Positions 15,226-46,036 of a stretch of DNA of 64,000 bases are shown in pieces. Position numbers and translations under genes: made by a program. Under the pieces are notes generated by a model. That model ran no database searches, was not told the origin of the DNA, and saw nothing but the letters and a program-made list of their open reading frames with translations. Origin of the DNA: Leptogorgia sarmentosa (taxonomy: Eukaryota). The DNA lies in contig OZ210885.1 of NCBI GenBank assembly GCA_964658305.1, positions 15,252,001 to 15,316,000 on the forward strand, in the 5' to 3' direction. Within the stretch, counting starts at the first letter, position 1, and every line of letters starts with the position of its first letter.

Positions 15226-15289
15226 TCCCAGAGAGGATTCGAACTTCGGAGCCACAATCCGACACTCTATCCAATTGAGCTACCCCAGG
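15226..15289 (-). tRNA. Degenerate tRNA-like sequence in the left TIR (anticodon GTG, variable loop and T-stem partly deleted)
   Basis: Minus strand CCTGGGGTAGCTCAATTGGATAGAGTGTCGGATTGTGGCTCCGAAGTTCGAATCCTCTCTGGGA, followed by TAGTTTTTT. Confidence 0.65.
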
Positions 15290-16097
15290 TATTTATTTAT
15301 AATGAAACATATTTTTCATAAAAAGTGGTTTTTATTTACATGAGTTTTTAAAACATTTTTTATACCAAGAGTTTTTCAGTGGTCGATACAAATCCATGAA
15401 TATCATCTATTTCGGTGCTATCTTCGTCCAATTTAATGCTCGAATCCATGAATAATCCGGCTTCATTTTGCTGTTCGCTGTCATCAGGGATGTAATTCGG
15501 TTCCGGGATCGTGTTTGCTTCATTCGCTTTACTCTGTTCACCCGTATCTTCTGCGATGGTGTTGTTTGCGTTATGGCTGGCCATTTCGTGGCAAAATCAC
15601 AGAATTTACCGCATTCTTTTTGCAATGTATCGCACCAGCGATTCTATTCGAGCGCTAGTTCTTCGGGCGAGGGGTTGCTTTTCCATATTTCTGGGGGTAT
15701 TTCAGGTCCTTGTTCGTTTGTTAACGCTTGCTGCATTTCCTGAGTCATTTCGGCCCACTGTTCTTCGCTTTCGGGTTGACTTTGCCATCTCTGGAACACT
15801 TCTTCTAAAGTAAAACACTTGTACTCGAGAGGGGTATCGTTTGATTCTTCCATTTGCATAACGTTGTTATGTTTAATGCACATAATTTGCTCTTTAAATA
15901 GACATTTTTCCTGTGTTTTTTCCATGGGTTTAGTTTTTCCTAGGGATTTTAAAACATTCTGAATAATTATCGGATCAAAAGAAAATGTTCCGAATAATTA
16001 ACGGATAACTATTCACCAATAGAAACACAGAATTGCGAACATATAAGTGTGAAAAACAATCTTGTTATTGTCTTTTTTAGCGAGCGATCGAAAGAAA

Positions 16098-16742
16098 ATG
16101 GCAAGTGAGAACGAAAAATCAATATATGAACGTGCTCGAAGAGGAAAGCTACGCGACGAGCGAAGGGTCCACCAAGTGATGCGCCCCTGGCTACAGTTAA
16201 AACACCCCATGATTTTTACTGAATTTACCGCGTTTTTTTGAAAAACTACGGGATAGGAATCCCCGAACAAAAAACTTAACGACATCGGCCGACTTCTAGT
16301 GTTTCCGCAGATGTGGAAAAGGTAGGTATTATGTTTTTTGTACAGAACTTTTTTTTTGTACTGTAATTTTACAGACTTTACAGAAGAGCCAATACCTCCG
16401 ACAACAACACCGCAGTCACCGCTGGTAACTACACCACTTCCCCTGCCACTGATAACGCTACCACCGATAACACCACCACCGATAACAGCACCGGTACTTG
16501 TTAAAACAGAACCACTTACACCTGAGCCACAACCCATTGAAATGGATGAGAATGAGGATTCCGGACTAAGTAGTCCGGAACCATGTATACCTAAAACAGA
16601 GCCGGAGCCCCCCATCGATAGATTTATGGAAGTGAAAAAATTTATAACCGAGTTTGATTACGGAGTCGAAGTATTCGACTGGGAGTGTTTTGAAGAAGAC
16701 GTTGATGCAATCGAAGAGATGGATTTTAGTCAATATGTTTAA
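16098..16742 (+). pseudogene. Polinton spliced hypothetical gene, Pro/Thr-rich with acidic C-terminus (copy at 22727-23371)
   Basis: ATG at 16098, putative GT-AG intron 16322-16374, disruption in a poly-T run of exon 1. Confidence 0.5.
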
Positions 16743-16996
16743 TTTTAGAAAATGTTTTTACCGATTTTTTAATTGGATTTTTATATTAAAAGGTTGATGA
16801 TGTAATGTGCTGTTGTTGTTGTTGTTGTTGTTACAGTTCAAGAATACTACGCATGCACACATCAGAAAATTAAGTTTTGAGTGTTTTAATAAGTTTTACA
16901 AATATAATAAATATTATAACCCTTACGTCAAAACGTGTTCGTTTCCTACAAAGCTGATGTCAATAAATACTCTAACGTTGTCCATTAAGCGCAAAG

Positions 16997-17638
16997 TTAG
17001 TAATTTTTTGTGTAAAACAGGAATGGACACGGTTTCTTTTCATCAAGTAAAGATTTCAAGTTTCTGTTTCCTTCTTGCTTTGGGGTGGGCCAAAAATCTT
17101 TTTCAAATCCTGTTTCTTTCGGTTGGGGGGTATGTTTTCCTCTGTGGGGGGGGTGTGTGTTTTCCTTATCTTCTTCCTCTGTGGGGGGTGTGTTTTCCTC
17201 TGCCCATTGGAAAAATTTGCATTGACCTTCGTCTTGCTTTCTGGGACAGCAAAAGAATATTTTTCCTCCGTTAGGCCCGCTTTTTTTCACCTTTTGTCTT
17301 CTGGATACTTCGTTATGATAGCAACGTGGTCTCGGAAGTATGATTTCATCAGCCCATTCAAAGTATTCGCATTTGTTTGTGTCTTTTGAGCACACAGAGA
17401 AGGGATGTCCGTAGTTGTCTTTTATCATGTCTTTAACGACGCGGAGTTTTGCTAGGTTGTTGTCACAGCACACAGGTTGCGGTTGATCTGTTTCGTGATA
17501 CTTGTCCATAGTGATTCCGTAAATGTATCCTTCGTCTTCGGAGCATATGAAATGACAACTTGGTTTCTGATCACAGAACCAGAATCTTCCGTTTTCAGTT
17601 TCAGAGGTACCAGCAGGTAGTTTGTGTAAGCATTCCAT
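16997..17638 (-). CDS. Polinton protein with three GRF-type zinc fingers (copy 1)
   Basis: CLH...NGRFWFC...C, CCD...NYGHPFSVC...CEYFEWAD and CYH...GPNGGKIFFCC...CKFFQWAE; TATAAAA about 35-40 nt upstream of ATG 17638. Confidence 0.85.
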   Translation of the reverse strand: MECLHKLPAGTSETENGRFWFCDQKPSCHFICSEDEGYIYGITMDKYHETDQPQPVCCDNNLAKLRVVKDMIKDNYGHPFSVCSKDTNKCEYFEWADEIILPRPRCYHNEVSRRQKVKKSGPNGGKIFFCCPRKQDEGQCKFFQWAEENTPPTEEEDKENTHPPHRGKHTPQPKETGFEKDFWPTPKQEGNRNLKSLLDEKKPCPFLFYTKNY

Positions 17639-17980
17639 TGTCGCGGTATGATTTTGTTTTTTAGTGCTCTTCTTTTTATAACACATTTCCTCCGGTTATT
17701 TTCCCGAGGTTATTCCTGAGGTTATTAAAGATTTTAGACATTCAGGATGAGAATTAAATGTTATTATATAGAATTTGCGTCTAAGATAAACTTCCTCCCC
17801 GCGTATCATACGTTGAAATAAGTAACGGATGTGGTAGAAATTTTCGAAGAAACTAAGTCAATCATCATCTCCCTTCACAAAATGATTGCATCCCGATGTT
17901 GTATTGGTAACAACAAAACATATTCAGTCGCAGGAACACATTCTCGCAAAATGAGAACAACACTACTTTTTTGCATATAT

Positions 17981-18124
17981 TATTATCATTCCCGAGGTTA
18001 TTCCTGAGGTTATTCCTAAGGTTATCATTCCCGAGGTTATTCCTAAGGTTATCATTCCCGAGGTTATTCCTGCGGTTATCATTCCCGAGGTTATTCCTGC
18101 GGTTATTTTTTCCTACGGTTATTT
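17981..18124. repeat. Minisatellite (ATTCCCGAGGTTATTCCTGCGGTTATC)n upstream of the pPolB TATA box; shorter copy at 24610-24714
   Basis: 27-bp units built of 12/15-bp subunits; TATATAAA at 18141. Confidence 0.85.
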
Positions 18125-18454
18125 TAAAGGGTTCTGTAGGTATATAAAATGCAGCGAGAATTAGTTTTGTTAAACAAGTATGGAGTCTGCTGAATGGGAG
18201 TGGGGACATACAAATGACTCGTGGATATGGGATGTGCCCGATCCACAAAATGGCATCGAAAATGAATGGGAGTGGGGAGACTCTAACGACTCGTGGGATT
18301 TACAATATGGGGAAAAAAAGAGGAAAGCCGATGACGACGAAGTTAGCACCCCTGAAAAGTTTTACACAATTAACGAAGTTCGCAAGTAAAGGCGAAAAAG
18401 TATCGTACAACCGCCGTGGATTATTCTGTCCACTTTAATGATCTGGAAGATCTC

Positions 18455-19710
18455 TTCAACTAATCTGAACCCTTCAATCCGAACCCTTCAAGACACCCTC
18501 AACATAACCCCAACCCAATCCTTAATCTGACCCTAATCAATCAAATCCGAACCCTTCAAGACACCCTCAACATAACCCCAACCCAATCCTTAATATGACC
18601 CTAACCAATCAAATCCGACCCCTTCAAGACACCCTCGACATAACCCTGACCCAATCCTCAATCTGACCCCAACCAATCAAATCCGAACCCTTAAATACAC
18701 CCTAGGCATAACCCCACCCAATCCTTAATCTGACCCTAACCAATCAAATCCGAACCCTTAAAGACACCCACGACATAACCCCAACCCAATCCTTAATCTG
18801 ACCCTCGACTGCCCTGTTCCCACCTTACAACAACCCGTTGCAATAAATCAGGCCCCCACTGTATTCGGACATCACGTCACCTCGCACTTCATTCAAGCCC
18901 CAGGGTAAACATTTACATACCACGCGGCAAGCAAATGTAGGCGCAATCCTTTCCAACTCTAAGTACCAAAGAGCAAAGACAAACCAAGAGGAGCCCTCTC
19001 CTAAAAGCCAAAAAAAAGCCCAACAAGAGCCACCGCAGCCACCAGTACAAAGAACGAATCAAGTAGGATCAACATGTTTCTAATTTACCCGTTATCACAG
19101 ATAACAAACATAATTATTTTGCCATCTATCATACCGACACAGCGGGATAACCCGACAAACAAACAGCCATTCATCCTTCCAAACCACTATGTCAAACCAC
19201 CTACCACTCATCCACCAAAAGTAAATACACTCACACACCAACCACATTGTGTTAAACCTGCGAGCACGTCTTCCAAGACCAGATAGCAGGTTAGAAACGT
19301 GCTTTCCCAGTTATGCTTGGGGCCTGATGAAACATAACTAGGAGTTTTCAACGAAAACCAAGGGACAGGGCCCGGTGATAATTGGCACTCACACAAAACA
19401 CCACTATAAAACCGGGTTTTGTCAGTATACACATAATACAATTCGTTTTAATACAATTCCTTTTAATGTAACTCGTTTTAATACCATTCCTTTTAATGTA
19501 ATTCATTCTAATATAATTCACATGATTACAACCTTGCATCCTACCATAACCTTCAACCCTGTCCACCATCAAACTCAATCACAACCACACTCATCACATT
19601 CCATGGTGCCACCCATCGATCCACAACCTCAATGAGGACACAACTATTTGAACCACAGTCCAGGATCCGAATACCTGCAAAAAAAACACTGTATTATTTA
19701 ACAACCGCCA
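18455..19710. other. Unclassified ~1.25-kb insertion interrupting the pPolB N-terminal region (copy about 25045-26300)
   Basis: Flanks read ...DYSVHFNDLEDL and EYERTQQIFEQLLNDVTEG; the insert holds a 68-bp C/A-rich tandem repeat (18476-18805) and 25-bp repeats. Confidence 0.55.
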
Positions 19711-21854
19711 CAAAATGAGTATGAGCGTACACAGCAAATTTTTGAGCAATTGCTTAACGACGTTACGGAAGGAATGAGGGAAAGCGATTTGGTTCGTTTT
19801 GTTTTGCCCAAGGATCAACTGGACAAACCCATTTCGCTACCGTTTATGCCCGTTTCGCGACTTACACCTGAACGTGTTTTTTCTCAGATCGAACGTGTTG
19901 TACAATCTAAACAGGAGTTGCGCCTAAACGAGTCGGCCATTGTTGACATTGTTCATGTCGAGATGCCTAACGGTAGTGGGCACGAAAAACGCAATAATAT
20001 TGATTTATTGAGTTATTTACAAAACAAAAGATCGATAGTGACCATTAAAAACAAAGACGATTTGTGTTTGGCTAGAGCTTTTGTGGTTGCTATTGCAAAA
20101 ATTGACAAAGACAAAAGGTATAAGCTCTTAGCCGACTCGCGTAGACTGGTGCAGGGAAATGCTGCATGGGAGCTGCATCAAAAAGTAGGTGTTCCTATAG
20201 GGTCATGTGGGATTCCCGAAGTGAAACAGTTCCAAAAATATTTGACGGGGTATGAGATTAACATTGTCTCTATGGAAGATGGAAACACCATTATACACCC
20301 AGCGCAACCTGTTGTTACAGAAACGAAACACATTTATTTGTACTTACACAATAATCACTACGACGTTATCACATCAATGCCGGGTTTTTTTAAGCCGGGG
20401 GAATTTTTGCCATATGTCCAGAAAACCCTATGATAATGCGGTGGATCAATTATGCGATAGTATGTGCAAAATGTGTCGTGGTTTGGAATGTTCCTTTATT
20501 GACCCCAGAAGTTGTACGGACTGTAAAACGTGGCACATAAATTAGCGCACAGGCGTAAAGCCGATAATACAATACAATAAGTACCACAAAGAACGTGACG
20601 AAGCACACATTCAAAGGAATAGGGCGAGTCTTATGAAAAAACTACAACATAGCTAGGGCTTTTAAAATAGCCCCCCGATAGCTCCGGTACAAACAATATT
20701 GTCCCTGGGCGTTACAGTGCACGCCGTCTAAAGATAATAGGGAGCGATCGGAGCGATAAAATTCCTTGTGATCCCACAAGAAAAAACCACACTGGTCAGC
20801 AAGGACAACCGGTAGATATTGTCGCAAAATTGCGGCTTTGGCATTAAAATCACCATCGGGTGCTCAAGTTTGTGGAGTGTTACGGTTTATGACTTGACAC
20901 ACCCCAACAACGCGAACCTTATATTGATCGCGAAGAACTTGCGCAAGGTTGTCAATTTTAGACCCCACTACCTCAGGGCGTAGAGTAGAAAGATCATTGG
21001 TTCCTACTTCGAGTATAACAATATCTGGCTTATACTTAGAAACCCAAGAAAGATCATACTTAATTAGTTTGTCGACGGTACGACCACCCGTACCGTACAA
21101 AGAAACATGCCCCGATTCAGGTATGTGAAAGTTTGGGGCAGCACGCGGATCAAAGCGCGCGTTTCAATTGTCCTTAAGACGACGCACAAACGAATGACCC
21201 AATATCAGAATATTCGGTACACACATTGACATTATATTATGAGCAATATAATAACAGAAAATTGAAGTACCTTGTCAGGAATGACTTGATAAAATTCAAT
21301 TGAAAAAGCAGAACAGAAACGAGTTGATTAGCGAACCTTGCGCAGCCAAAGCCAAAAGCAGAATGAGCCCAATGTGAATTCTGCCTGATTTATAAAGCCA
21401 CTCCTCTCTGTTTTCCCGCCATTACAAGCACGTGATCTAACACTTAAAATAATCCACTTAAATATGTTGACTATTCAATTATCTATACTTAATTAACTAA
21501 TTTATATCCCTTGAGAGCAGGAAGCACTAAAATCCTTATTGGTATGCCAATAATTCCTTTGTTATCTACGTTGAGAGAAAAAATATATTGTATTCATAAT
21601 TATTAGTAGTACTATACTGATCTTATAGCGTCAATCGGTGTTGGTGCGTGGATATTGTGTGGAGAATATAGCGTCATGTGGATATTGCGTGGATATTTTT
21701 TGTGTGGATCTTGTGTGATGTCACGTGTACTTTGCGTGGATATTTTTTGTGTGTATTTTTCCCCCTTTATGATGTATTTCCCTACCCCCTATTTTTTACG
21801 GATCCCACACCCCCTTTTTTGTGTCAGGTGTAGCAGGCGATGGAGAAAAAACTA

Positions 21855-21918
21855 TCCCAGAGAGGATTCGAACTTCGGAGCCACAATCCGACACTCTATC
21901 CAATTGAGCTACCCCAGG
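21855..21918 (-). tRNA. Duplicate of the degenerate left-TIR tRNA-like sequence
   Basis: Same sequence as 15226-15289 at offset 6629. Confidence 0.65.
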
Positions 21919-23625
21919 TATTTATTTATAATGAAACATATTTTTCATAAAAAGTGGTTTTTATTTACATGAGTTTTTAAAACATTTTTTATACCAAGAG
22001 TTTTTCAGTGGTCGATACAAATCCATGAATATCATCTATTTCGGTGCTATCTTCGTCCAATTTAATGCTCGAATCCATGAATAATCCGGCTTCATTTTGC
22101 TGTTCGCTGTCATCAGGGATGTAATTCGGTTCCGGGATCGTGTTTGCTTCATTCGCTTTACTCTGTTCACCCGTATCTTCTGCGATGGTGTTGTTTGCGT
22201 TATGGCTGGCCATTTCGTGGCAAAATCACAGAATTTACCGCATTCTTTTTGCAATGTATCGCACCAGCGATTCTATTCGAGCGCTAGTTCTTCGGGCGAG
22301 GGGTTGCTTTTCCATATTTCTGGGGGTATTTCAGGTCCTTGTTCGTTTGTTAACGCTTGCTGCATTTCCTGAGTCATTTCGGCCCACTGTTCTTCGCTTT
22401 CGGGTTGACTTTGCCATCTCTGGAACACTTCTTCTAAAGTAAAACACTTGTACTCGAGAGGGGTATCGTTTGATTCTTCCATTTGCATAACGTTGTTATG
22501 TTTAATGCACATAATTTGCTCTTTAAATAGACATTTTTCCTGTGTTTTTTCCATGGGTTTAGTTTTTCCTAGGGATTTTAAAACATTCTGAATAATTATC
22601 GGATCAAAAGAAAATGTTCCGAATAATTAACGGATAACTATTCACCAATAGAAACACAGAATTGCGAACATATAAGTGTGAAAAACAATCTTGTTATTGT
22701 CTTTTTTAGCGAGCGATCGAAAGAAAATGGCAAGTGAGAACGAAAAATCAATATATGAACGTGCTCGAAGAGGAAAGCTACGCGACGAGCGAAGGGTCCA
22801 CCAAGTGATGCGCCCCTGGCTACAGTTAAAACACCCCATGATTTTTACTGAATTTACCGCGTTTTTTTGAAAAACTACGGGATAGGAATCCCCGAACAAA
22901 AAACTTAACGACATCGGCCGACTTCTAGTGTTTCCGCAGATGTGGAAAAGGTAGGTATTATGTTTTTTGTACAGAACTTTTTTTTTGTACTGTAATTTTA
23001 CAGACTTTACAGAAGAGCCAATACCTCCGACAACAACACCGCAGTCACCGCTGGTAACTACACCACTTCCCCTGCCACTGATAACGCTACCACCGATAAC
23101 ACCACCACCGATAACAGCACCGGTACTTGTTAAAACAGAACCACTTACACCTGAGCCACAACCCATTGAAATGGATGAGAATGAGGATTCCGGACTAAGT
23201 AGTCCGGAACCATGTATACCTAAAACAGAGCCGGAGCCCCCCATCGATAGATTTATGGAAGTGAAAAAATTTATAACCGAGTTTGATTACGGAGTCGAAG
23301 TATTCGACTGGGAGTGTTTTGAAGAAGACGTTGATGCAATCGAAGAGATGGATTTTAGTCAATATGTTTAATTTTAGAAAATGTTTTTACCGATTTTTTA
23401 ATTGGATTTTTATATTAAAAGGTTGATGATGTAATGTGCTGTTGTTGTTGTTGTTGTTGTTACAGTTCAAGAATACTACGCATGCACACATCAGAAAATT
23501 AAGTTTTGAGTGTTTTAATAAGTTTTACAAATATAATAAATATTATAACCCTTACGTCAAAACGTGTTCGTTTCCTACAAAGCTGATGTCAATAAATACT
23601 CTAACGTTGTCCATTAAGCGCAAAG

Positions 23626-24267
23626 TTAGTAATTTTTTGTGTAAAACAGGAATGGACACGGTTTCTTTTCATCAAGTAAAGATTTCAAGTTTCTGTTTCC
23701 TTCTTGCTTTGGGGTGGGCCAAAAATCTTTTTCAAATCCTGTTTCTTTCGGTTGGGGGGTATGTTTTCCTCTGTGGGGGGGGTGTGTGTTTTCCTTATCT
23801 TCTTCCTCTGTGGGGGGTGTGTTTTCCTCTGCCCATTGGAAAAATTTGCATTGACCTTCGTCTTGCTTTCTGGGACAGCAAAAGAATATTTTTCCTCCGT
23901 TAGGCCCGCTTTTTTTCACCTTTTGTCTTCTGGATACTTCGTTATGATAGCAACGTGGTCTCGGAAGTATGATTTCATCAGCCCATTCAAAGTATTCGCA
24001 TTTGTTTGTGTCTTTTGAGCACACAGAGAAGGGATGTCCGTAGTTGTCTTTTATCATGTCTTTAACGACGCGGAGTTTTGCTAGGTTGTTGTCACAGCAC
24101 ACAGGTTGCGGTTGATCTGTTTCGTGATACTTGTCCATAGTGATTCCGTAAATGTATCCTTCGTCTTCGGAGCATATGAAATGACAACTTGGTTTCTGAT
24201 CACAGAACCAGAATCTTCCGTTTTCAGTTTCAGAGGTACCAGCAGGTAGTTTGTGTAAGCATTCCAT
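23626..24267 (-). CDS. Polinton triple GRF zinc-finger protein (copy 2)
   Basis: Identical to 16997-17638. Confidence 0.85.
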   Translation of the reverse strand: MECLHKLPAGTSETENGRFWFCDQKPSCHFICSEDEGYIYGITMDKYHETDQPQPVCCDNNLAKLRVVKDMIKDNYGHPFSVCSKDTNKCEYFEWADEIILPRPRCYHNEVSRRQKVKKSGPNGGKIFFCCPRKQDEGQCKFFQWAEENTPPTEEEDKENTHPPHRGKHTPQPKETGFEKDFWPTPKQEGNRNLKSLLDEKKPCPFLFYTKNY

Positions 24268-27200
24268 TGTCGCGGTATGATTTTGTTTTTTAGTGCTCTT
24301 CTTTTTATAACACATTTCCTCCGGTTATTTTCCCGAGGTTATTCCTGAGGTTATTAAAGATTTTAGACATTCAGGATGAGAATTAAATGTTATTATATAG
24401 AATTTGCGTCTAAGATAAACTTCCTCCCCGCGTATCATACGTTGAAATAAGTAACGGATGTGGTAGAAATTTTCGAAGAAACTAAGTCAATCATCATCTC
24501 CCTTCACAAAATGATTGCATCCCGATGTTGTATTGGTAACAACAAAACATATTCAGTCGCAGGAACACATTCTCGCAAAATGAGAACAACACTACTTTTT
24601 TGCATATATTATTATCATTCCCGAGGTTATTCCTAAGGTTATCATTCCCGAGGTTATTCCTGCGGTTATCATTCCCGAGGTTATTCCTGCGGTTATTTTT
24701 TCCTACGGTTATTTTAAAGGGTTCTGTAGGTATATAAAATGCAGCGAGAATTAGTTTTGTTAAACAAGTATGGAGTCTGCTGAATGGGAGTGGGGACATA
24801 CAAATGACTCGTGGATATGGGATGTGCCCGATCCACAAAATGGCATCGAAAATGAATGGGAGTGGGGAGACTCTAACGACTCGTGGGATTTACAATATGG
24901 GGAAAAAAAGAGGAAAGCCGATGACGACGAAGTTAGCACCCCTGAAAAGTTTTACACAATTAACGAAGTTCGCAAGTAAAGGCGAAAAAGTATCGTACAA
25001 CCGCCGTGGATTATTCTGTCCACTTTAATGATCTGGAAGATCTCTTCAACTAATCTGAACCCTTCAATCCGAACCCTTCAAGACACCCTCAACATAACCC
25101 CAACCCAATCCTTAATCTGACCCTAATCAATCAAATCCGAACCCTTCAAGACACCCTCAACATAACCCCAACCCAATCCTTAATATGACCCTAACCAATC
25201 AAATCCGACCCCTTCAAGACACCCTCGACATAACCCTGACCCAATCCTCAATCTGACCCCAACCAATCAAATCCGAACCCTTAAATACACCCTAGGCATA
25301 ACCCCACCCAATCCTTAATCTGACCCTAACCAATCAAATCCGAACCCTTAAAGACACCCACGACATAACCCCAACCCAATCCTTAATCTGACCCTCGACT
25401 GCCCTGTTCCCACCTTACAACAACCCGTTGCAATAAATCAGGCCCCCACTGTATTCGGACATCACGTCACCTCGCACTTCATTCAAGCCCCAGGGTAAAC
25501 ATTTACATACCACGCGGCAAGCAAATGTAGGCGCAATCCTTTCCAACTCTAAGTACCAAAGAGCAAAGACAAACCAAGAGGAGCCCTCTCCTAAAAGCCA
25601 AAAAAAAGCCCAACAAGAGCCACCGCAGCCACCAGTACAAAGAACGAATCAAGTAGGATCAACATGTTTCTAATTTACCCGTTATCACAGATAACAAACA
25701 TAATTATTTTGCCATCTATCATACCGACACAGCGGGATAACCCGACAAACAAACAGCCATTCATCCTTCCAAACCACTATGTCAAACCACCTACCACTCA
25801 TCCACCAAAAGTAAATACACTCACACACCAACCACATTGTGTTAAACCTGCGAGCACGTCTTCCAAGACCAGATAGCAGGTTAGAAACGTGCTTTCCCAG
25901 TTATGCTTGGGGCCTGATGAAACATAACTAGGAGTTTTCAACGAAAACCAAGGGACAGGGCCCGGTGATAATTGGCACTCACACAAAACACCACTATAAA
26001 ACCGGGTTTTGTCAGTATACACATAATACAATTCGTTTTAATACAATTCCTTTTAATGTAACTCGTTTTAATACCATTCCTTTTAATGTAATTCATTCTA
26101 ATATAATTCACATGATTACAACCTTGCATCCTACCATAACCTTCAACCCTGTCCACCATCAAACTCAATCACAACCACACTCATCACATTCCATGGTGCC
26201 ACCCATCGATCCACAACCTCAATGAGGACACAACTATTTGAACCACAGTCCAGGATCCGAATACCTGCAAAAAAAACACTGTATTATTTAACAACCGCCA
26301 CAAAATGAGTATGAGCGTACACAGCAAATTTTTGAGCAATTGCTTAACGACGTTACGGAAGGAATGAGGGAAAGCGATTTGGTTCGTTTTGTTTTGCCCA
26401 AGGATCAACTGGACAAACCCATTTCGCTACCGTTTATGCCCGTTTCGCGACTTACACCTGAACGTGTTTTTTCTCAGATCGAACGTGTTGTACAATCTAA
26501 ACAGGAGTTGCGCCTAAACGAGTCGGCCATTGTTGACATTGTTCATGTCGAGATGCCTAACGGTAGTGGGCACGAAAAACGCAATAATATTGATTTATTG
26601 AGTTATTTACAAAACAAAAGATCGATAGTGACCATTAAAAACAAAGACGATTTGTGTTTGGCTAGAGCTTTTGTGGTTGCTATTGCAAAAATTGACAAAG
26701 ACAAAAGGTATAAGCTCTTAGCCGACTCGCGTAGACTGGTGCAGGGAAATGCTGCATGGGAGCTGCATCAAAAAGTAGGTGTTCCTATAGGGTCATGTGG
26801 GATTCCCGAAGTGAAACAGTTCCAAAAATATTTGACGGGGTATGAGATTAACATTGTCTCTATGGAAGATGGAAACACCATTATACACCCAGCGCAACCT
26901 GTTGTTACAGAAACGAAACACATTTATTTGTACTTACACAATAATCACTACGACGTTATCACATCAATGCCGGGTTTTTTTAAGCCGGGGGAATTTTTGC
27001 CATATGTCCAGAAAACCCTATGATAATGCGGTGGATCAATTATGCGATAGTATGTGCAAAATGTGTCGTGGTTTGGAATGTTCCTTTATTGACCCCAGAA
27101 GTTGTACGGACTGTAAAAGAATGTTTAAAAATCAAGCGTGTTATGACAGACACAAGGAACCCATAGGCAATGTCAGCAAGGGAAGAAGTGTTTGAAATGT

Positions 27201-27833
27201 GGCAAATCAATGAGAATACACAAATTACCGGGTCACCTATGTCAAAAAACAAAATGTAGAACATGTAAAGAGCTTGTTGACGATAAAGATACACATTTTT
27301 GTTACATGAAGAAACCCGAGGAAAGAAAGATGGAGGAAAGTGAAATGGAGGAAAGCGAGATGGGGAAGCAAAGCGGATACGATTCAACTGTTCTTTTTTG
27401 ATTACGAGTGTCGACAAGAAGACAGAATCCACGAACCAAATTTATGTATTGTTCAAAACGAAACGGGGGACGAATGGAGTTTTTCTGGAGAAAATACAAA
27501 TTTGGAATTTTGCAAATGGTTGTTGACAAAAGAACATAAGAATTGTGTGTTTATAGCCCATAACTTTCAGGGGTATGATGGATATTTTATTCAAAATTAT
27601 TTGAACAAGAATGGAGTGATGTATGATGTTATCATGAGCGGTGCCAAGATTTTAACACTGACAGTTCCTATGCTTAAAGGCCGTTTTCCACTAGGCGGAA
27701 TTTTGCGCGCGGAGAGAAAATTTGCGATCGAAAATTTTCGAGAGGAAACTTTGTTTGATTTCCACATAGATGGCCATTACGAGCGGAAAATGTTGAAATT
27801 AAAAGGCAGGAAAATCAAATCTTGAAAATAAAG

Positions 27834-29163
27834 ATGGCGGCAACAAACCAAAAACAACTACGAAAGTTAATAGTATTACTTGTGCTTCGCAGGAGACTAC
27901 GCAGAAAAAATGAAAAGTATAAGAAGCGCTTTTGGACGCGAAGAATATATCAAGAACGCAATTTAAAGGAAGAATATCACCAATTAATCAAAGAAATGAT
28001 GCTTTTTGATCACAAATACTTCTTTCGGTGTTTTAGAATGGTGCCAGAGACTTTTGAAAAGCTTCTTTCCTGGATTTCTCCTTATATACAGAAAAAAAAC
28101 AACTAAAATGCGAGATCCCGTTTCACCGAGTGAAAGATTATCTGTTACTTTGCGGTATCTAGTTACGGGTGATGAACAAACTAGTATAGCAGCTAGTTAT
28201 CGCATTAGCCCTTCTACTGTAGGAAGAATTATTGGAGAAACGTGCAAGGTTCTTTGGCGAGTTTTGATCGAAAATGGTTACTTAGCTGCACCAAGTACAA
28301 AAGAACACTGGAAGAAAATCGCTAGGAAGTTTGAAACAAAATGGAATTTTCCACATGCACTAGGTGCGATCGATGGGAAACACGTAGTAATTCAGGCACC
28401 TGCACGTTCTGGATCTGATTACTTTAATTATAAAAAGACACATAGTGTTGTGCTTTTAGCGGTCTGCAATGCAGACTATGAATTTACACTTGTAGACATT
28501 GGCGATGCTGGTAGACAGAGTGATGGCAGTGTCTATGCAAATAGCTTTCTTGGCCATGCCATAGATAATAATCTATTGCAACTCCCTGAGGCTGAAAAGC
28601 TGGATGAATCTAATCCTTCAAACAAAACTTACCCTTACGTATTTGTCGCTGACGATGCTTTTGGCCTCAAGACGTATATGATGAAGCCTTGCCCAGGTCA
28701 GAACTTAACTCTCGATGAAAGAGTGTTCAATTATAGACTATCAAGGGCAAGGCGCATTATTGAAAATTGCTTTGGAGTAGCAACATCACGTTTTCGAGTT
28801 TTTCGAAAACCTATCATTGCTAATGTTGAGAAAGTCGTAGATATTACCAAAGCGGTTGTTGTTTTGCACAATTTTTTAATGGCAACAAGATCTCCAGAAG
28901 ATACCCACAGTTACTGCCCCCTTAACTATACAGACCATGAATCAGCAGCTGGTCAACAAACTGGAGAATGGAGGAGGGAGGAAAATACCAATGAAGGAAT
29001 GGTCCCTATTCCTCGGATGGGCTCAAATAACTATTCTAAGTCAGCCAAAGATGCTCGTGATGACTTCAAGGAATATTTCAATTCTCAGCAGGGAGCTGTC
29101 AGCTGGCAAATGGATATGGTAACGCGAACCTTACATGCATTTGACAAACAGATTCAATTATAA
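27834..29163 (+). pseudogene. Harbinger DDE transposase (HARBI1-like), one frameshift in a poly-A run near 28095
   Basis: LRYLVTG, GAIDGKH, YFNYK, DAGRQSD, VADDAF, FNYRLSRARRIIENCFG and LHNF. Confidence 0.92.
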
Positions 29164-29293
29164 TAAATTAAAGTACTGCTTTCTTTGTTTCTTACTGAAA
29201 CGTACAGCAACTAAAACATAACGAGATTTTAACTCTAAACATATGAGTGTTCAATTGTTTTTAGGTGAAGTCACTCTGTTTTAATGGAACTGG

Positions 29294-30828
29294 TTACATT
29301 AACTGTTCATCATTAAATTCCAGATCAAACAACAACTGATTTATTTTTATCTTGGCAAGCCTATTTTGTCTTGCTGGCATCTTCTTAAGTAATGGTACAA
29401 GGCTCTGACAAAACAACATGTCTTCGTCATTATCAACAACACTGGTTGATTTAGATGAGGGATCCTGCATATCTTGCAATGTTTTTACCAACAGTGTATC
29501 AACAGCAAATGCCATTTCAGCTCTTGATTTACTTCGCTTCGCGGGCGTGTATGGAATAATTTCACTTTCTGCTTTATTCTTTCCTGGTGCAGAGCTTGAA
29601 CTTCCCTTTGTTAATGTTGACGTTGCAGTTGTACTGTTGGAGCAAGGCAATGACTGGGTAGTTACAGCAGATGCAGGATTGTCTGTAAGCTGTGTATCTT
29701 CTACTTCGATTGCTTGTGTCAAATTGCTCTCTGTAGGCTTGTTACTTACTTTGCAGTGAAGAAAACTTAACTGATCAAAATACTTGCATGTAGGCAACTT
29801 TGATGCAGCTGCACCTGACTTAAAAGCTTTGGATCTTCTATCGAGGCACTTCTTCAAATTATCTTTTAAATATTTCAACTGAGTCTTTAAGAAATCAACT
29901 GCAAATACAATAAGAACTTCAATGGGTAAATAAATTACATGTATTGGCTTGTGTTATTAATTAAATTGTTTCAACTATATAAAATTCTTACCATCTTTAT
30001 TAAATATTTTGGAAATTATCATCCATGCATTTTGTTTGGCATTTCTGTCTTTATAGGTAGATAGAGATGTATTCCACAGACACCCAAGTTTCCGAACTTC
30101 TTCGATAAATAGCTCAACATCAAAATCAGTTGACACTTCTTCCTTTTCACTAGCTTCTATGTTGGCCAAAGTTGTTTCACTTGACTCTGTTGCTTGGTTG
30201 CCTATCAAATATTTTTATACAAAATAAGATGCTTAATTTTACAATATAAGGAATTCTAAACAAGCTTAACCAGAATAACCATACTGATTATGAATAACAT
30301 GAATAAATGGCAACTAATAACTAATATGAATGGCAAGTGAATAATTTTGTATATTTGTCTAATGTGATTCCAATCCAATACAAGTTTCATTACTGTATTT
30401 AATATAAGAATCCTGTGTTGTATTTATGTGACATGCTTTCAGATTATTAATTTATTATAATTTATAGCAAATAACAGGGCTTAGGAGTTTATTTACTTAT
30501 AGGACTCCACATCTTCAATTCAAAATCAAAGAACAAAATCAATAAAAAGAGTCAATGAAAACATGAAATAAAGAAGTATATAAAAAGATGTATTTCTGAA
30601 ATATAAGAGAGTACATGTAATAATATATGAAAGAGAATTTGATGCAAACCTTGTTCTACTGGCATTGTAGTTTTTGATATACTTTGAGCTTGAGTAACCG
30701 ATTCTTCATCTAATGCATTGAGTTCCTGTTGTTTTTGTTGTGACTGGCGAAGAAGCTCTTTCAAGGAGTTTATACGCGAAGTATAAAATCTTGCCTTTGC
30801 GCTTCCCGCTTCACTCATGTTGTCGGCC
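29294..30828 (-). CDS. Harbinger MADF/Myb-type DNA-binding protein (spliced)
   Basis: Exons LFIEEVRKLGCLWN...KQNAW and KYFDQLSFL, C-terminal DEDMLFCQSL..L...QNRLAKIKINQLL (BESS-like). Confidence 0.8.
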
Positions 30829-33800
30829 ATGTTGTTTTTTGTCAAACGAAATCGTGGAAAGCGGAAAATGTCGGATTGTGTTCAACTTCCAAGCGAAAAC
30901 GATTGGCGCCAATCGCAAAAATAAAAAGAATACTGCGCATGCTCAAATACAATTCCCAGGCGGAAAACACATTCCGCGCGCAAAATTCTGCCTAGTGGAA
31001 AACGGCCTTAACATACGATTTATTGACTCGTTAAATTTCATTCCTATGGGTCTCGCTAAATTCCCAAAGACCTTTGGGTTGGATGAATTACGTAAAGGAT
31101 ATTTTCCTCACTTGTTCAATAAGAAGGAGAATCAGAATTATGTCGGACTCATTCTGTGCGAACAATACTATAATCCAAATGAAATGACCCCAAAAAATCG
31201 CGAAGCCTTCCAGAAATGGCACAAAGAGCAAAGAAGCAATAATGTAGTGTTTGATTTTGTCAAAGAGATCACCGAGTACTGTAGATCCGATGTGGATATT
31301 TTGAGACGTAGCTGTATGGAGTTTCGTGAATTGTTTCGAAATAGTACAGGAATCAATCCGTTTGAGAAATGTCTAACGATTGCCAGCACGTGTCAACTGG
31401 TTTACCGTACCAACTTTTTGAAAGAAAACACAATTGCAATTTTAAATTCCGATCGTCATCTGAAAATGAAGCAATCCAACACAGCCCTGAAGTGGTTATC
31501 GTCTGTGTCTGAGAAAGAGGGTATTTGTATTGAACATGTCAGGAATGGTGGAGAGAAGCGGGGTAGGCAAGTATTCCCTGGATGGGTATCATCAAGAATC
31601 AAATACCGCATACGAATTTCAAGGATGTCTTTGGCATGGTAAGTAGTTTACAAAAATAATGAAATGTGTGTACTTTTTTTCTTAACCATGTTATTTTTTA
31701 GGGTGTTCAACATGCTATGCGCGTAATACTGTGAATCCTGTAAACGGAAAGACCATGCAAACTCTATATGAAGCCACAATAGAGAAAGTTTGCTATCTCA
31801 GAGAACAAGGTTTCAATATCATGGAAATGTGGGAATGTGATTTGAAGAAAGAGCTGGAGGAGAATGAAAAGATACGCCATTATTTCGAAGAGTACGATCT
31901 TGTTGATTCGCTTCAACCACGTGATGCATTTTTTGGTGGTCGTACGAATGCTGCTAAACTATTCCACCAATGTGAAGGCGAAGAAAAAATAAGGTTAGAA
32001 AAGGTTGTTGTGTATTTTTTTGTTTTTTACTATTTAAAAAATGTGTTTTTTAGATATGCGGATTTTACAAGCCTGTATCCCTGCTGTAACAAATCAACAA
32101 GAATGGTAGTAGGGTATCCTGAAATTATTACCGAGAATTTTCAGGACATTTCAACATACTTCGGCCTAATAAAATGCACCGTGTTACCACCCCGGGGATT
32201 GTTTCATCCTGTTCTACCTTATCGTACTCCTGGTAAATTAACATTCCCATTATGCAAGGCGTGTGTTGATGCCATTAATAAGACTATGTGTACCCATTCC
32301 GATGAAGAAAGAGCTATTCTAGGCACATGGTGTCATGTGGAATTACTAAAGGCAATAGAGAAAGGCTACCCGATTCTACGTCTACACGAGGTGTGGCATT
32401 TTCCTGAACAATCCAGCGAGTTATTAAAAGAGTATGTGGACACTTTCTTAAAAATTAAGCAGGAAGCCAGCGGCTACCCGAAAGATTGCACCAGCAGAAG
32501 CGAACCTACGTGGCCGAGTATTTGGAGCACGAGGGAATTGCATTGGATCCAGAAAAGATTACACACAATCCAGGCTTGCGCGCTTTAGCCAAACTCATGC
32601 TAAACTCATTTTGGGGTAAGTGGTATTGCTTTTTTATATTTTGGGGTAATTGTATTTTTGTTTTAGGCAAATTTGGGCAACGAGGTAATTTATGTAAGAC
32701 GGAAATGATAACGGAACCACAAAAATATTATGACCTTTTGACCTCCGACGAATTGGAAGTATCCAACGCCCGAATAGTCAGTGACAACATGGTTAAAGTA
32801 CAGTACAAAAGTGTCGGCGACTTTGAGGAACCAAATAGCAAAGCGAATGTAGTTGTTGCTGCTTTCACTACGGCGTATGCACATTTAAAACTTTACGACT
32901 TATTGGACCTGTTGCAAGAACGGGTACTTTACTACGATACCGATTCTGTTATATATGTGTCCAAACCCGGTAAACCAGAACCACCTATTGAAAATTATCT
33001 GGGTGACTTAACCGACGAGTTAGACAGAGATTATATCACCACGTTTATGTCAGGAGGTCCGAAGAATTACGCATACATACTATAGTGCTGGAGGAAAATC
33101 AGAAACGAAAGTGCGGGGTATTACCTTGAATCATACAACGCAACAAAAGATAAATCCCGACGTCATTCACGCACTTGTGTACTTAAACGTGGGGTGTAAT
33201 GCTGAAGCAAAAGTTACGATTAATATCCCATTCAAAATCACACGGGATAAGAAGGAAAAAAACATTGTGACAAAGAAAATGAAGAAGGATTACTGCATTG
33301 TATATGACAAACGCATTATTGTAGAAAACTATAAAACATTACCCTATGCATTTTAGTGTAAAAATATTTATTAAACACTGTTTTTAAACACAACCTATTG
33401 TCTTTCTTTCGGAAGCATGTGTCGGTACTTTTCTGGACACTTTTCCCAAAAACCACCGTCTTTTAAACTAAGATCCCCATACTTTGCGATTGTTCGCTTT
33501 AGTTGTTCGCATTTGGGATGAGAATTAACGGCCAAGGTGTAGTAATTCTCTTACCATCGGATTTGTTCCCTCTTTATCATACGATGAAATAACTGAGGGA
33601 TAGAGTAGAAACCTTTGAAGAAGTTGTGTATGTCATCATCTCCATTTACGAAATGTTCGTTTCCCGTTGTTTTGTTGGTAATAAGAAAGTATTTTCCATC
33701 ACAGAAACACATTCTTAGCTCTCTTCTTTACAAATGAAATGAAATGAACGCTTTTTTCTTTTATATATTATATTCCCGTGGTTATTTTTTCCTATTGTTA

Positions 33801-34373: not shown

Positions 34374-34414
34374 GAAACGTATACACGTTTTGAAAATGGT
34401 ATTTACACATTGAC

Positions 34415-35029
34415 ATGATGGATGTAAGGTTCAAAGTACCAGCGAATTTTTACGTATCGGGACTAAGTCAAAGAGGAAAATTGTTTCTGGTCCGCAAATT
34501 ACTAAAACATTCTAACGAATTATTTCACCCTGTTCCTACAAAGATCATTTATTGTTATGGGGAGTATCAAAAAGAGTTTGAGGAACTACAAAATGTGGAT
34601 TTGGTTGAAGGATTTCCGTCGAATTTGGATGACTTAACTTCAATTGTTGCGTTGGATGATCTTATGGGAGAATGTTCAAAAGATCAGCACGTCTCCGATT
34701 TATTTACACGAGGATCTCATCATAAAGGCATTTCTGTATTGTATCTTACACAGAACCTATTTCCACCAGGAAAATTATCAAGAACCATTAGTTTAAATTG
34801 TCATTACATTTTTGTGTTTAAAAATCCGCGTGATTCTCTTGGAATTGCAACCCTGGCTAAACAGATGTATCCTAGACAGAGCAATTTTTTGGTGGATTCC
34901 TTTCATGATGCTACGAAACAACCACATAGTTATTTACTCATTGATTGTCATCCACAAACTCCGTAAAAAATACAATTACGTACAAATATTTTACCTGGAG
35001 AAAGACAAATCGTGTATATAAAGAAGTAA
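34415..35029 (+). pseudogene. A32/FtsK-like packaging ATPase
   Basis: Degenerate Walker A (SGLSQRGK), Walker B (ALDDLM), FTRGSHH, LTQNLF and SLNCHY.FVFKNPRD; premature stop at 34964. Confidence 0.9.
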
Positions 35030-39545: not shown

Positions 39546-40003
39546 TTAAATATTTTTTAATTGAGATGCAGGTATCCACGAATTGAATTTGGATGGATAT
39601 CCTAACCATTTTACAAAGTATTGCTCATTTTTTCCTTTGGCTTTCTTTTTTCAAACTTCTTCTACTTCATACACATCATCTTCCTTAATAACTTTTTGTA
39701 ATTCGTCTTTGTAAAATGTACCGTCAAGTTCCTCTTGATTATAGTCTTTTAGCTTATACACTGGTGGATATCGAGGTATTTGTTTGCTTACAGTAAAAAT
39801 TTCTTTTGAAAAATTAGGAAGATAACCCTTTTCAAATTTACGCTTTATTTTACTTATTCGTACCTGATCACCTACAGAGAACTCATACTTTACTCTTTTT
39901 TTATGTGAAGGGCAATCACCGTATAATGTATGCCATATTTCTTGCTCGTTTTCTATAGTGATCGTTTTGGATTATAGTAAACACTAGACAAGTATGCATC
40001 CAT
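39546..40003 (-). pseudogene. Polinton retroviral-like integrase with catalytic core deleted; chromodomain retained
   Basis: MDAYLSSVYYNPKR joined directly to ...VGDQVRISK...FEKGYLPNFSKEIF...YFVKWLGYPSKFNSW. Confidence 0.85.
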
Positions 40004-41064: not shown

Positions 41065-42983
41065 ATGAAGAGAGGATATCCCTACATAAACGGTAATCTT
41101 AATTTTGGTTACGAATACGACTCCAACCAAAAAAGCTCCAAAAGTGGCGGTGGCCGAAGCGGCACTCCGAGACCACGAGGACCTCCGGGACCTACAGGAG
41201 CTCCGAAACCTACGGGATTGCAGGGATCTCAAGGATCCCTGGTACGGCTGCCAATAAAGGAGACCCCGGACCCAAATGAGATCAGGGACCTCCAGGTCCT
41301 CAGGGTTCGCAAGGAGCACAAGGACCCTCAGGACCGCAAGGAAAAACCGGTTCAGCAGGACAAAAAGGGGACAAAGGAGACAAAGGAGACCTGGGCCTAA
41401 AGGAGACAAAGGAGATCAGGGACATCAGGGACCTCCAGGAAAAACAGGTGCCATAGGTTAACAAGGACAGACGGGTTCTCAAGGACCAATTGGACCGACA
41501 GGACTAAAAGGGGCAAAAGGGGCAAAAGGGGATAGGGGTGTCGCCGGAAATGACGGTAATCCAGGACCTGCAGGACCTACAGGTCCTGTTGGACCTACTG
41601 GACCAACGGGAGCACAAGGACCCACAGGATCGCAAGGACAAAAAGGAGCCAAGGGAGATAAAGGAGATAAAGGAGACAAAGGGGACAAAGTAGATGTCGG
41701 AGATATTGACGCTGCCACAAAAAAGCAACTTATTATGATCAATAAAAACTTTGGACAAATAACTTACCCCCATACTTTCCAAACCTTCGAATTTGATGAT
41801 TCGGGTACAGAAGCCCCTTACAATGGTGGTCAAGGAAGGAATCTTGTAGTAACAAAAAGCACCACAAACGAAACAGTTCCAATTTTGGGTTCTCGTGCCC
41901 CTATTGAAATAACCCAAGACATCACCCTAGACCCCGCTGATGTCAAAACAGGAATCTCTTTTGTTGCCCAATACTCTCAAGCAAAGTCATACGGAGTGAT
42001 ATTCGCTATCCAAGATCACAACAACGGGACAGCAAAAACCGTATTCATGACCACACACAACGGTACACATGTTTTCTCATCTGCTCTCCTAAGGCGACTA
42101 GGAACGGTAGACCACAACGGAAACACATACAAATACTATTTGGCGAGAGTTGGCGAGAATGTAACTGATAACAGCAAAGCAAAATTTACGATTGAAATTT
42201 TGTACGTAACTGCCGACTTACCTGAAGGTAAAAATGTCAATAAGCGTTTACGGAGGATTTACATTTCTACAGTTATCCGTTGCAAATTACAACGCCACAA
42301 ACCTCACAGATAAACTTCATTTTCCACATCACAAAGACTTTGAAAGGCAGAAATTCAAAAGTATTATGAAAGGAGACACTCTTCTCGCCGGATTCGAGCA
42401 ACAAGATGGAACTATCCTTCCTAATGACAAATTAAAAATAGCCACAGCAAACCTGTTAGGTTCTACTCAACTACATATGGCAAAAACTATACTACATTAT
42501 ATCACAATCGCATACAATAATACAGTAATGGCCTCCTTATTTATGACATCACCCTCTCAAACACCCGCACCATTGTGGTGTCACCCAAAAAGCACCATCC
42601 TTGGATACCCCTCACCAATCTTCCCGTTAGTAAGCACAGATGCTTTACGCCTAACATTACTAACGCACACATTCGATGATGATAATAATATTGGTAATGA
42701 TTTGGAATTGCAATTCCGTCTACTTCTGTACACAGCCGGTACAGACACACAAACAGACACAGGAACAGAAGCTATCCTCGGCACAATAAAATACAAGGAC
42801 AAGAAACGATCCGAAAAAAAATTCCTCCTCAATCACACATTTGAATATAACCCACCAAAGTTTGGGTCCTATATTTGTTACACTTTACAATTCAAACAAA
42901 TAAAACCCACAACAGCAATAGGTAATGAGTCAGATATAGTATTCAACGCTGTACAATTACCAGATTTATCAACAATTCAATAA
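41065..42983 (+). pseudogene. Collagen-like (Gly-X-Y) fibre-type protein with globular C-terminus, frameshifted
   Basis: GGA-periodic codons at 41170-41700 ([26 protein letters not shown]) continuing into ORFs 41735-42313 and 42234-42983. Confidence 0.8.
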
Positions 42984-43600: not shown

Positions 43601-43961
43601 AAATCTTAAAGCATTCCGCACGTTTTTTAGCATCGCCCACGACCTTTCTAGTATCACCCACGGCTTTCTGTTTTATTCTTTTAAGGTGTGAACGTAGGGG
43701 TGTCGCGGAAAATTCCTTATCTCCATACCACCAAATATAAAAATGTCGACTTTATCATTAGGCGACTTTTGCAAGTCCATCGATTTGTTCACGATCCAGT
43801 TGTATTTCTCTCTTTTTTTGAACAAATATGGTAATATATTTTCTTCTCATACATCCTCCCGCGTATATATAACAACACAACGCGAAAAATCCATTGCGTG
43901 AAATGAAATAAAACTACACAGTGTCCGACTTTTAACTCAACAAACCCCCGGAAAACACACA

Positions 43962-44180
43962 GAAATAACCTCGGGAATAATAACCACAGGAATAACCTCG
44001 GGAATGATAACCGCAGGAATAACCTCGGGAATGATAACCGCAGGAATAACCTTGGGAGTAATAACCACAGGAATAACCTCGGGAATGATAACCGCAGGAA
44101 TAACCTCGAAAATGATAACCGCAGGAATAACCTCGGGAATGATAACCACAGGAATAACCTCGGGAATAATAACCTCGGGA
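43962..44180. repeat. Minisatellite (GGAATAACCTCGGGAATGATAACCGCA)n, reverse complement of the left-arm VNTR
   Basis: About 8 units of 27 bp. Confidence 0.9.
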
Positions 44181-44233
44181 TATTATGTATTTAAGACCGC
44201 ACGCCCGCAAAAATAATCACTCGTGAATGAGCA

Positions 44234-44756
44234 ATGAATATCGTCGGAATAATAGATTTGGATGGTTTTTTGTGCAAAAAACCTTTTTCTGTCGAGAACT
44301 TGGAATTATTACACATGGAGATACGTACGGAACATCGTTCCACTTTAATACAGCACTATGCTATGAAAAACTAAATGAAAAGGACAGAATTCAAGTTAAA
44401 TTCCTACAAGAACACATTCACGGACTATCGTTAATTGACAAAAACGCAATGAATCAGGGTACATTATTGTTCAAAGATTTTACGCCGCTTACCGAATAAA
44501 TCAGGACAGTACAATCGCTTACAAGGGAGGATTTATTGAAAAAAATTTACTTGCATGCTTAAACATACCGTCAATAAACCTGGAACTTTTTGGTTGTCCG
44601 AAAGCTGTAGATATTTTTCCTGAAATGCCATGGTTGGAATGTTGTGGACAGCATTTATTGTTAAAGAATGGAACGGATTCTTACAAACATTGTCCACGCA
44701 TCAAAGTTGAAGCATATTTACATTGGTTCACAAAATATTGGATGCCAAAATACTAA
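44234..44756 (+). pseudogene. Polinton DEDD-exonuclease-like protein (frameshifted)
   Basis: IIDLDGF...RELG, IAYKGG..EK..L, NLELFGCPK, CCGQH...HCP; family assignment is from recalled motif resemblance. Confidence 0.5.
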
Positions 44757-44886
44757 CATTCTGTACGAAAAACTATCCAAATCTATTGTAAATACAAAAA
44801 CGGTTATGTAAATAAAACTTTTTTATGAAAAAACAAACTTCATCATTCATTATTTATACAAACATTTGATCGTACACTAATATATA

Positions 44887-44959
44887 CCCTTGTTAGCTCA
44901 ATTGGTAGAGCATCGGATTGTAGCTCCGGGGATTACTGGTTCGAATCCAGTCCGAGGGA
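44887..44959 (+). tRNA. tRNA-Tyr(GTA), intronless, inside the right Polinton TIR
   Basis: CCCTTGT TA GCTC AATTGGTA GAGC A TCGGA TTGTAGC TCCGG GGATT ACTGG TTCGAAT CCAGT CCGAGGG A: 73-nt cloverleaf, C1:G72 and A73, A and B boxes, T6 terminator 4 nt downstream; one acceptor-stem mismatch. Confidence 0.85.
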
Positions 44960-46036
44960 TTGTTTTTTCTCCGTCGCCTGCTACACCTGACACAAAAAAG
45001 GGGGTATGGAAAACATAAAAAATGGGGGTGTGGTATTCGTAAAAAATAGGGGGTAGGGAAACACATCATAAAGGGGGAAAAATACACGCAAAAAATGTCC
45101 ACGCAAAGTCCACGCAACGCTATATTCTCCACGCAATATCCAGGCACCAACACCCGATTGACGCTATAAGATCAGTATAGTACTACTATTATTTATGTTT
45201 ACTGGTCACTTGGAAGCATTATGGTTACCATCTGCACTGCCACCAAATACCGCGTAATTCCATTGTCATCTTGCAATGTTTGTATATGACTTTTAATCTG
45301 ATGCACTTGACGTTCATTTAAGTTAATAGAGAGCGTCGTGGCAGGCTGGAAGGCGTCTTTCGCGAGTCAACACCGTCCAAAGGCCATTTTGGAAGGCGTC
45401 GTTAAAAGCAAACATGGAAACCAAGTCAAAACGAGAGAAGTATCATTTTACAATAATTACTATTGTGGGTATTTACGAGACGTTTTCCGTTGATGTGCGA
45501 AGAAATGTTCGTATATTTTCTCCACGACACGTATACTCGTATACAAGTGCTTGTTGTTTTGTGCTTTTGTATAAACACAAATTATTATACATGCACCTTA
45601 GGCTTAACATGACTGACTTGCTGACTTTGGTTGCACATGAAGTGAGTGAGTTATTTTAAAGCACCAATAGTCATTTCTATTATGTAATATTTATGAACTT
45701 CTACATTGCAACCTATCCATTGCAAGTATTTTGAAATCAGTACATACTAAAATCTTGAATAGCATGATTCTTCTGTTTGTTCATTTTCCAACTCTAAATT
45801 ATAAGATAATGACACACACATAACACACATACATTTAATTACAACACCCATGAATGTATTAACCCATTTTTATAAACTGGCAGTAGCATATTATCTTCTT
45901 TTGATAAAAGTGGTTTGAGCATTAATGGTGGCCTTGTATTAGTACGATTAACAGTATCATGATCAATTTTAGTGTTTGTATGACTGCTTTCCATTATTTA
46001 TATATTTAAATTTGTCCCCACATTTTTATAATTAGT

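Follow-up and report, generated by a model that had tools for sequence, protein, structure and literature searches.

The right end of a Polinton in the genome of Leptogorgia sarmentosa carries what looks like a complete gene for tRNA-Tyr. Does this gene belong to the element or to the host, and, if it belongs to the element, what could it be doing there? We addressed these questions by analyzing the 64-kb stretch of DNA introduced above (hereafter, the window), other copies of the same element end in sequencing runs, and distant relatives in metagenomes. The outcome is that the tRNA gene at Polinton ends is real, viral, and recurrent across lineages.

Results

Boundaries and terminal repeats of the element

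The element and its borders are defined by the following features:

21605–45187: decayed Polinton of 23.6 kb, with junctions ATTATT/AGTAGT (left) and ACTACT/ATTATT (right)
21599–21604 (left) and 45188–45193 (right): 6-bp target-site duplication ATTATT, read from the junctions
21605–21978: left imperfect terminal inverted repeat (TIR), beginning AGTAGT and preceded by ATTATT at 21599–21604
44796–45187: right imperfect TIR, comprising an AATAAA module (44796–44832), the tRNA gene, a G-run module, and the terminal ACTACT
13895–27118: tandem duplication of 6.6 kb (copies 13895–20523 and 20524–27113), covering flank, left element end, and the start of the polymerase gene

The TIRs begin with AG and are bordered by a 6-bp target duplication, as in Polinton/Maverick elements. 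A contig from run X6 diverges from the window sequence exactly at 45187, i.e., it represents a different insertion site. In an alignment of the two ends, the last 67 bases are 97% identical and the middle part is approximately 92% identical, with lower identity in the tRNA part. Farther inward, both ends share the AATAAA module (44796–44832 and 21941–21978), a similarity that was equaled in none of 2000 shuffles. Because the repeat homology extends inward past the tRNA gene to this module, the gene lies inside an imperfect TIR of approximately 390 bp; at both ends, it is flanked inward by the end signal of the last gene and outward by the outer repeat. Integration of the element into a host tRNA gene was considered and ruled out, the junction being an AT-rich hexamer and the tRNA gene lying 228 bp inside.

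The copies of the 6.6-kb duplication show no mismatch and a single 39-bp indel, and the duplication is either very recent or an assembly artifact. A single 27-bp minisatellite occurs at 17983–18123, 24612–24714, and 43960–44180; it is inverted between the element ends, at a depth of approximately 3.0 kb on the left and 1.0 kb on the right. Outside the element, the region 500–6500 of the window contains 20 matches to 5S rRNA in an array with a spacing of mostly 226 bp, and an inverted repeat is found at 857–1716 within this region.

Protein genes

The protein-coding content of the element is listed below; L014, L038, and L041 are metagenome loci described further on.

26292–33356, plus strand: protein-primed family B DNA polymerase (PolB) in pieces, with PF03175 in two pieces
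~27680–31010: Harbinger-type transposon (DDE_Tnp_4 and a BESS-motif gene), inserted in PolB and splitting it
34394–34966, plus strand: packaging-ATPase-like ORF, 39–41% identical to ORFs of L038 and L041
36626–39512, minus strand: protease-like ORF, pieces of a double jelly-roll (DJR) capsid gene, and penton-like ORF
39654–39971, minus strand: C-terminal remnant of an rve-chromo integrase, 44% identical to the L014 integrase
41175–42313: collagen-repeat (fiber-like) gene in pieces, inside the element
44230–44756, plus strand: broken terminal gene of a family of approximately 175 aa, ending 130 bp before the tRNA gene

The element thus has the protein-primed family B polymerase (PF03175) of Polintons/Mavericks, and its capsid/protease/ATPase trio, also present in L038 and L041, is that of a Polinton. 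The best database matches of the PolB pieces are octocoral proteins (60–66%), with adintovirus PolB at 45%. A capsid piece matches DJR clusters at 0.97, a recognition below the reliable mark, and the protease-like ORF matches S273R of ASFV weakly (E 0.036). The ATPase label rests on a motif and on gene order, both judged by eye. No catalytic core of the integrase was found upstream of the remnant. The terminal-gene family has invariant acidic residues and, by eye only, may be nuclease-like; the gene gave no match in Pfam or the PDB. All protein genes of this copy are broken. With PolB broken and the integrase core missing, the genomic copy is dead, and any function of the tRNA gene therefore belongs to the active family from which it came.

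The right-end tRNA-Tyr gene

Both ends of the element contain tRNA sequences, as follows:

44887–44959, plus strand: intronless tRNA-Tyr(GTA) gene of 73 nt (ARAGORN, Rfam)
~44894–44905 and ~44939–44948, plus strand: A box and B box within this gene
44960–44968, plus strand: Pol III terminator-like T run (T6 at 44963–44968), directly behind A73
21855–21918, minus strand: broken left homolog of 64 nt (31.2 bits, Rfam), pointing outward, 250 bp from the left end
15226–15289, minus strand: second copy of the left homolog, within the tandem duplication (left end at 14976)

The right gene is the sole tRNA called by ARAGORN in the window and matches RF00005 with 58.6 bits (E 4e-10); the Rfam scan of this gene gave tRNA only. 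It points outward, 228 bp inside the right terminus (45187), and it has C1–G72, A73, U8, A14, G18G19, and a canonical T loop (54–60). Of its 21 stem pairs, 20 are standard, two of them G·U (5:68 and 27:43), and 7:66 is a U·C mismatch. C1–G72, A73, and the GTA anticodon are what we take to be the eukaryotic Tyr identity elements; the right copy has them all in a cloverleaf, the left copy does not. The anticodon loop is flanked by U32 and C38, a context that is unusual for eukaryotic Tyr. The intron after position 37 that is typical of tRNA-Tyr genes is absent. The initial annotation had described just such an outward-pointing 73-nt cloverleaf with these identity elements, A and B boxes, a T6 terminator, and no intron, and every one of these features was found again.

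Beyond the tRNA part, there are no extra hairpins and no terminal stem, and a transcript would end no more than approximately 10 nt past A73. The position of the terminator directly behind A73 excludes both the body of a SINE and a microRNA tail of the kind found in the TMERs of murine herpesvirus MHV68. Plain energy folding of the right gene gave no cloverleaf and was no better than shuffles (z −1.13); unmodified tRNAs commonly fail to fold as cloverleaves in such calculations. ARAGORN at a low threshold returned mostly noise. Usage of TAC and TAT did not differ between the element and other ORFs in the window (p 0.11), and codon bias thus gives no support for tRNA supply.

The left-end homolog

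The initial annotation spoke of tRNA-like genes in both TIRs. Sequence homologous to the right gene is indeed present at the left end, but it is defective, so that the plural holds for position and only the right gene is intact. The left homolog has anticodon GTG and gaps of 8 nt (variable loop/T stem) and 2 nt (acceptor 3' strand), and it keeps both the A and B boxes. It counts once, since its second copy arose through the 6.6-kb duplication. A contig from run X1 matches it exactly, and in a left-type contig from run X4 (organism B), the 8-nt gap recurs and the 2-nt gap is absent; the damage is therefore real and shared. Run X6 yielded no contig matching the left stretch. In the organism B contig, 7 of 7 acceptor positions pair, with inner pairs unlike those of the right gene (by eye). 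Identity between the left and right genes of the window is 94% in the A-box/D arm and 90% in the T loop versus 43% in the acceptor 5' strand, all based on few sites. The left gene is an older paralog whose T arm was lost in this lineage, and it is likely a pseudogene.

Variation among other copies

The right end was present in 6 of 14 listed runs, and four runs from two studies were compared, of which X1 is perhaps the source sample. Contigs spanning the inner flank, the tRNA gene, and the outer repeat carry 17–29 differences (X1 record 5, X4 record 21), and one X4 variant runs on into the window's own repeat sequence. The 40 variants shown, out of 157, include nine within the gene. Four of these affect unpaired positions (17, 26, 46, and 59), and five affect paired positions (5, 43, 49, 65, and 68), where a standard pair always remains; 49:65 changes as a couple, from A–U to G–C. 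Among the same 40 of 157, there is no variant in the anticodon, at 1:72, or at 73.

Loose contig ends, read by eye, yielded five T-stem forms in which 25 of 25 pairs are standard (22 Watson–Crick and three G·U), with two-sided changes at 49:65 and 50:64; these are short ends without full phase, and some of those whose inner flanks differ may come from host loci. Three acceptor 3' strands occur among these ends, and all keep G70–G72. This stem-preserving variation is suggestive, and both the RNA fold and the Tyr identity positions seem to be under selection. If the fold matters in this way, two of the three roles raised by the initial annotation, supply of a tRNA or of a VA-like RNA, would be favored over the third, a pure TFIIIC insulator.

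The gene thus sits at the same place, with paired stems, in diverged copies from four runs. These copies, together with the five paired T-stem forms, show that it is neither a SINE head nor a one-off host insertion. Its location in a TIR, the homolog at the other end, the lack of an intron, and the terminator behind A73 point the same way, and the earlier assignment of the gene to the viral terminus rather than to the host holds.

Distant relatives in metagenomes

Using the terminal gene as bait, 28 database relatives were collected and aligned, and the alignment retrieved 47 metagenome loci with 28–59% identity, many of which carry PolB, capsid, or integrase genes. All 47 were scanned, and Rfam tRNA matches (Met, Ala) were found at most 1.2 kb behind the terminal gene in eight of them. 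Units consisting of an A box, a B box, and a T run numbered 16 in the 34.3 kb that follow the gene versus three in the other 155 kb (shuffles, 0.02), and these three correspond to the Trp, Arg-like, and Leu genes of L014. At 32 loci, the sequence continues for at least 400 bp past the gene; 11 of these have tRNA or A/B-box genes and 21 have none. In several of the latter, the bait gene is not terminal, and PolB or other genes come next. Many of the positive loci are closely related, and the positives hence represent three or four lineages, not 11 events. In a tree of the terminal gene, which omits six loci with short matches, the window's gene falls in a supported clade separate from the Met/Ala carriers. 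The ends of the relatives were placed where sister loci cease to match, approximately 180–920 bp beyond the genes; the genes are therefore described as subterminal, a position inside the TIR being known from the window element only.

A divergent pair of Met and Ala(TGC) genes, the latter with G3·U70, is found at L018:4102–4283, L020:6742–6922, and L025:7400–7580; in L018 and L020, its distance to the inferred end is 580–800 bp. Judged from its features, the Met gene of these loci is probably of the initiator type; the Met genes of the relatives have a U1·U72 mismatch in six of six cases. At another Polinton end, L014:8416–8731 contains Trp (CCA), Arg-like (ACG), and Leu (TAA) genes 610–920 bp inside; this Polinton has three or more penton-like paralogs and an rve-chromo integrase. 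The Trp and Leu genes of L014 and the Ala genes score 58–70 bits, as ordinary tRNAs do. The Met gene of L019 is degenerate, and Ala is absent from L016 and L023; the tRNA module is labile and readily lost in the relatives. Covariation among four Ala genes was not significant (132 of 500 shuffles). In some relatives, a single end bears two or three genes, with both orientations represented, and L040 and L047 contain an odd tRNA-like unit.

Ten loci (L016, L018, L019, L020, L023, L025, L028, L031, L038, and L041) contain a different Pol III unit with A box, B box, and T run near the element end (for example, L031:1055–1160 and L019:7578–7690). The spacer between its boxes resembles a spliceosomal intron of 42–48 nt, with a GTRAGT/GTAGGT donor, a branch-like motif, a pyrimidine tract, and an invariant CAG acceptor that abuts the B box in 10 of 10 units. 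L041 lacks the A box, and the consensus fold is weak. The unit is a candidate for a spliced or decoy RNA.

Two further features of these loci were noted. Histone 3' UTR stem–loops (RF00032) immediately follow the terminal gene or the ORF after it in seven loci (L013, L023, L024, L031, L035, L038, and L046), and some mRNAs of these elements may end like replication-dependent histone mRNAs; among polinton-like viruses (PLVs), six RF00032 matches have been reported (PMC12220804). The ends of L014, L018, L019, L020, L023, L030, and L041 are formed by TTAGGG repeats mixed with AAGATGGCG-type motifs, which are presumably YY1-like.

Other searches gave no further relatives. Capsid and terminal-gene queries found none in the viral contig or genome contig collections. 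A pattern scan of viral contigs returned four loci, all of them phage-like tRNA clusters, and a PolB alignment search returned 28 loci in which only approximately 60–115 residues matched and which, from the match table, were judged unrelated to Polintons.

Discussion

Our preferred reading, to which we give an even chance, is that the right-end gene is a virus-encoded Pol III tRNA-Tyr that would support translation. Host RNA polymerase III in the nucleus would transcribe the gene from its A and B boxes to the T run, and the transcript would be processed and then charged with tyrosine through C1–G72, A73, and GUA. The charged tRNA could support translation and damp the stress response to uncharged tRNA while the element replicates. 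Most functional tY(GUA) genes of yeast (more than 90%) contain an intron, and an extra intronless copy restores the tRNA level, repression of the integrated stress response, and growth (PMC12168002), which suggests a concrete benefit for a viral intronless tRNA-Tyr. The same yeast study describes intronless tY(GUA) genes as enriched for pseudogenes and hypomodified (PMC12168002). Points against a role as tRNA are the 7:66 mismatch, the U32/C38 context, and the broken left gene in two labeled organisms.

The gene could instead produce an RNA of the VA or TMER kind, i.e., a tRNA-shaped decoy or small-RNA precursor directed against innate sensing or RNA silencing. Adenovirus VA RNAs are Pol III RNAs with A and B boxes, made by a relative of Polintons whose linear DNA is likewise protein-primed; they are approximately 160 nt long, internal, and not cloverleaves, unlike the window's terminal tRNA gene. 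Such a role would require a fold, as observed, and the relatives hold subterminal units that do not decode, namely the intron-like units in 10 loci, the unit of L040 and L047, and the Met gene with U1·U72. The left end of MHV68 offers a parallel, with eight uncharged A/B-box tRNA-like Pol III genes (TMERs) clustered at the end of an animal DNA virus (PMC4337559). TMERs, however, have microRNA hairpins behind the tRNA part (PMC4337559), whereas here A73 is immediately followed by the terminator, so that such a hairpin would have no space, and Tyr identity is kept. The identity positions and the anticodon are invariant among the 40 of 157 variants shown, and the Trp, Leu, and Ala genes of the relatives score as ordinary tRNAs. 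We regard this explanation as a serious but unlikely one.

It is improbable that the gene acts in cis, with TFIIIC or Pol III bound to the A and B boxes at the inner edge of both TIRs and forming a chromatin barrier or insulating the outward-pointing terminal genes from the element ends. The symmetric position at both ends would fit, in this one element, as would the stronger conservation between left and right genes of the box-containing arms (94% and 90%) than of the acceptor 5' strand (43%, few sites). A left form without a T arm has kept both boxes and is common to organism B, and in the relatives any isotype seems to serve. A barrier, however, needs neither paired stems nor an anticodon nor Tyr identity, all of which are kept, and the two or three genes in both orientations at one end of some relatives do not suit it. 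Known tDNA barriers are likewise tRNA genes at a domain border, but they were shown for host centromeres and not for a mobile element (PMC2040200).

Capture of a host tRNA gene, once, followed by passive residence in the repeat, would make the gene tRNA-like merely through the short time elapsed and homogenization of the repeats. The broken left copy and the patchy presence and decay in relatives agree with such a history, and rRNA genes captured by PLVs have been judged nonfunctional (PMC12220804). Passive residence does not account for the two-sided stem changes among copies or for the loss of the intron. The left and right acceptor stems differ strongly, yet the left-type stem of organism B pairs at 7 of 7 positions (by eye), and comparable sites are occupied by different isotypes in separate lineages of the terminal-gene tree. 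We therefore think that passive capture, too, has only a small chance of being correct. Finally, insertion of the head of a tRNA-derived SINE, named in advance as a case that would overturn a viral origin, is already largely refuted and has next to no chance: SINE heads are typically intronless and slightly degenerate, as is the right gene, but here a T run directly follows A73, there is no body, tail, or flanking direct repeat, no further copy exists within the 64 kb outside the element ends, the sequence behind the gene is the terminal repeat common to both ends, and diverged copies have the gene at the same place.

The virus-encoded tRNA-Tyr that we favor belongs to an otherwise familiar element. 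Animal Polintons/Mavericks and adintoviruses share with it PolB, capsid, protease, ATPase, TIRs, and the 6-bp duplication (PMC8502044, PMC11131425); they have an rve-type integrase, of which the window element shows a C-terminal remnant. The word tRNA is absent from the main text of the paper on polintoviruses of stony corals (PMC11131425), and the adintovirus paper has tRNA flags only in a figure legend on MELD viruses, which have other replicases (PMC8502044). Searches of the open-access literature revealed no description of tRNA genes within or next to the TIRs of animal Polintons. The PLVs and virophages of protists are likewise small viral genomes of the same group with tRNA genes, with 558 Rfam tRNA matches in 8300 genomes, for which codon compensation or the countering of tRNA depletion has been proposed (PMC12220804). 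Section 16 of that work (PMC12220804) states neither a terminal or TIR position nor an animal host, whereas here the gene is inside the TIR at both ends. The novelty claimed by the initial annotation accordingly holds only for the terminal-repeat position and the host group; tRNA genes in polinton-like viruses were already known.

Tentatively, and with the balance somewhat against us, we suggest that the ends of cnidarian Polintons could carry an interchangeable Pol III cassette, comprising tRNA genes for Tyr, Met, Ala, Trp, Arg-like, and Leu and an RNA with a spliceosome-type intron. This cassette would be the counterpart of VA RNA and would reveal a lytic phase in which the virus fights translation shut-off. 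In most lineages, animal Polintons may be either mere transposons or real viruses, and a tRNA gene under selection would be cargo suited to a phase of heavy protein synthesis. Such cargo may therefore provide a cheap marker for when and where these elements wake in corals, in the form of a small RNA distinct from the product of the host's intron-bearing gene. A gene of this kind may also represent the point from which Pol III RNAs of the adenovirus VA type evolved. Finally, tRNA predictions in cnidarian genomes call for caution, as some of those that lack an intron or look odd are of viral origin.
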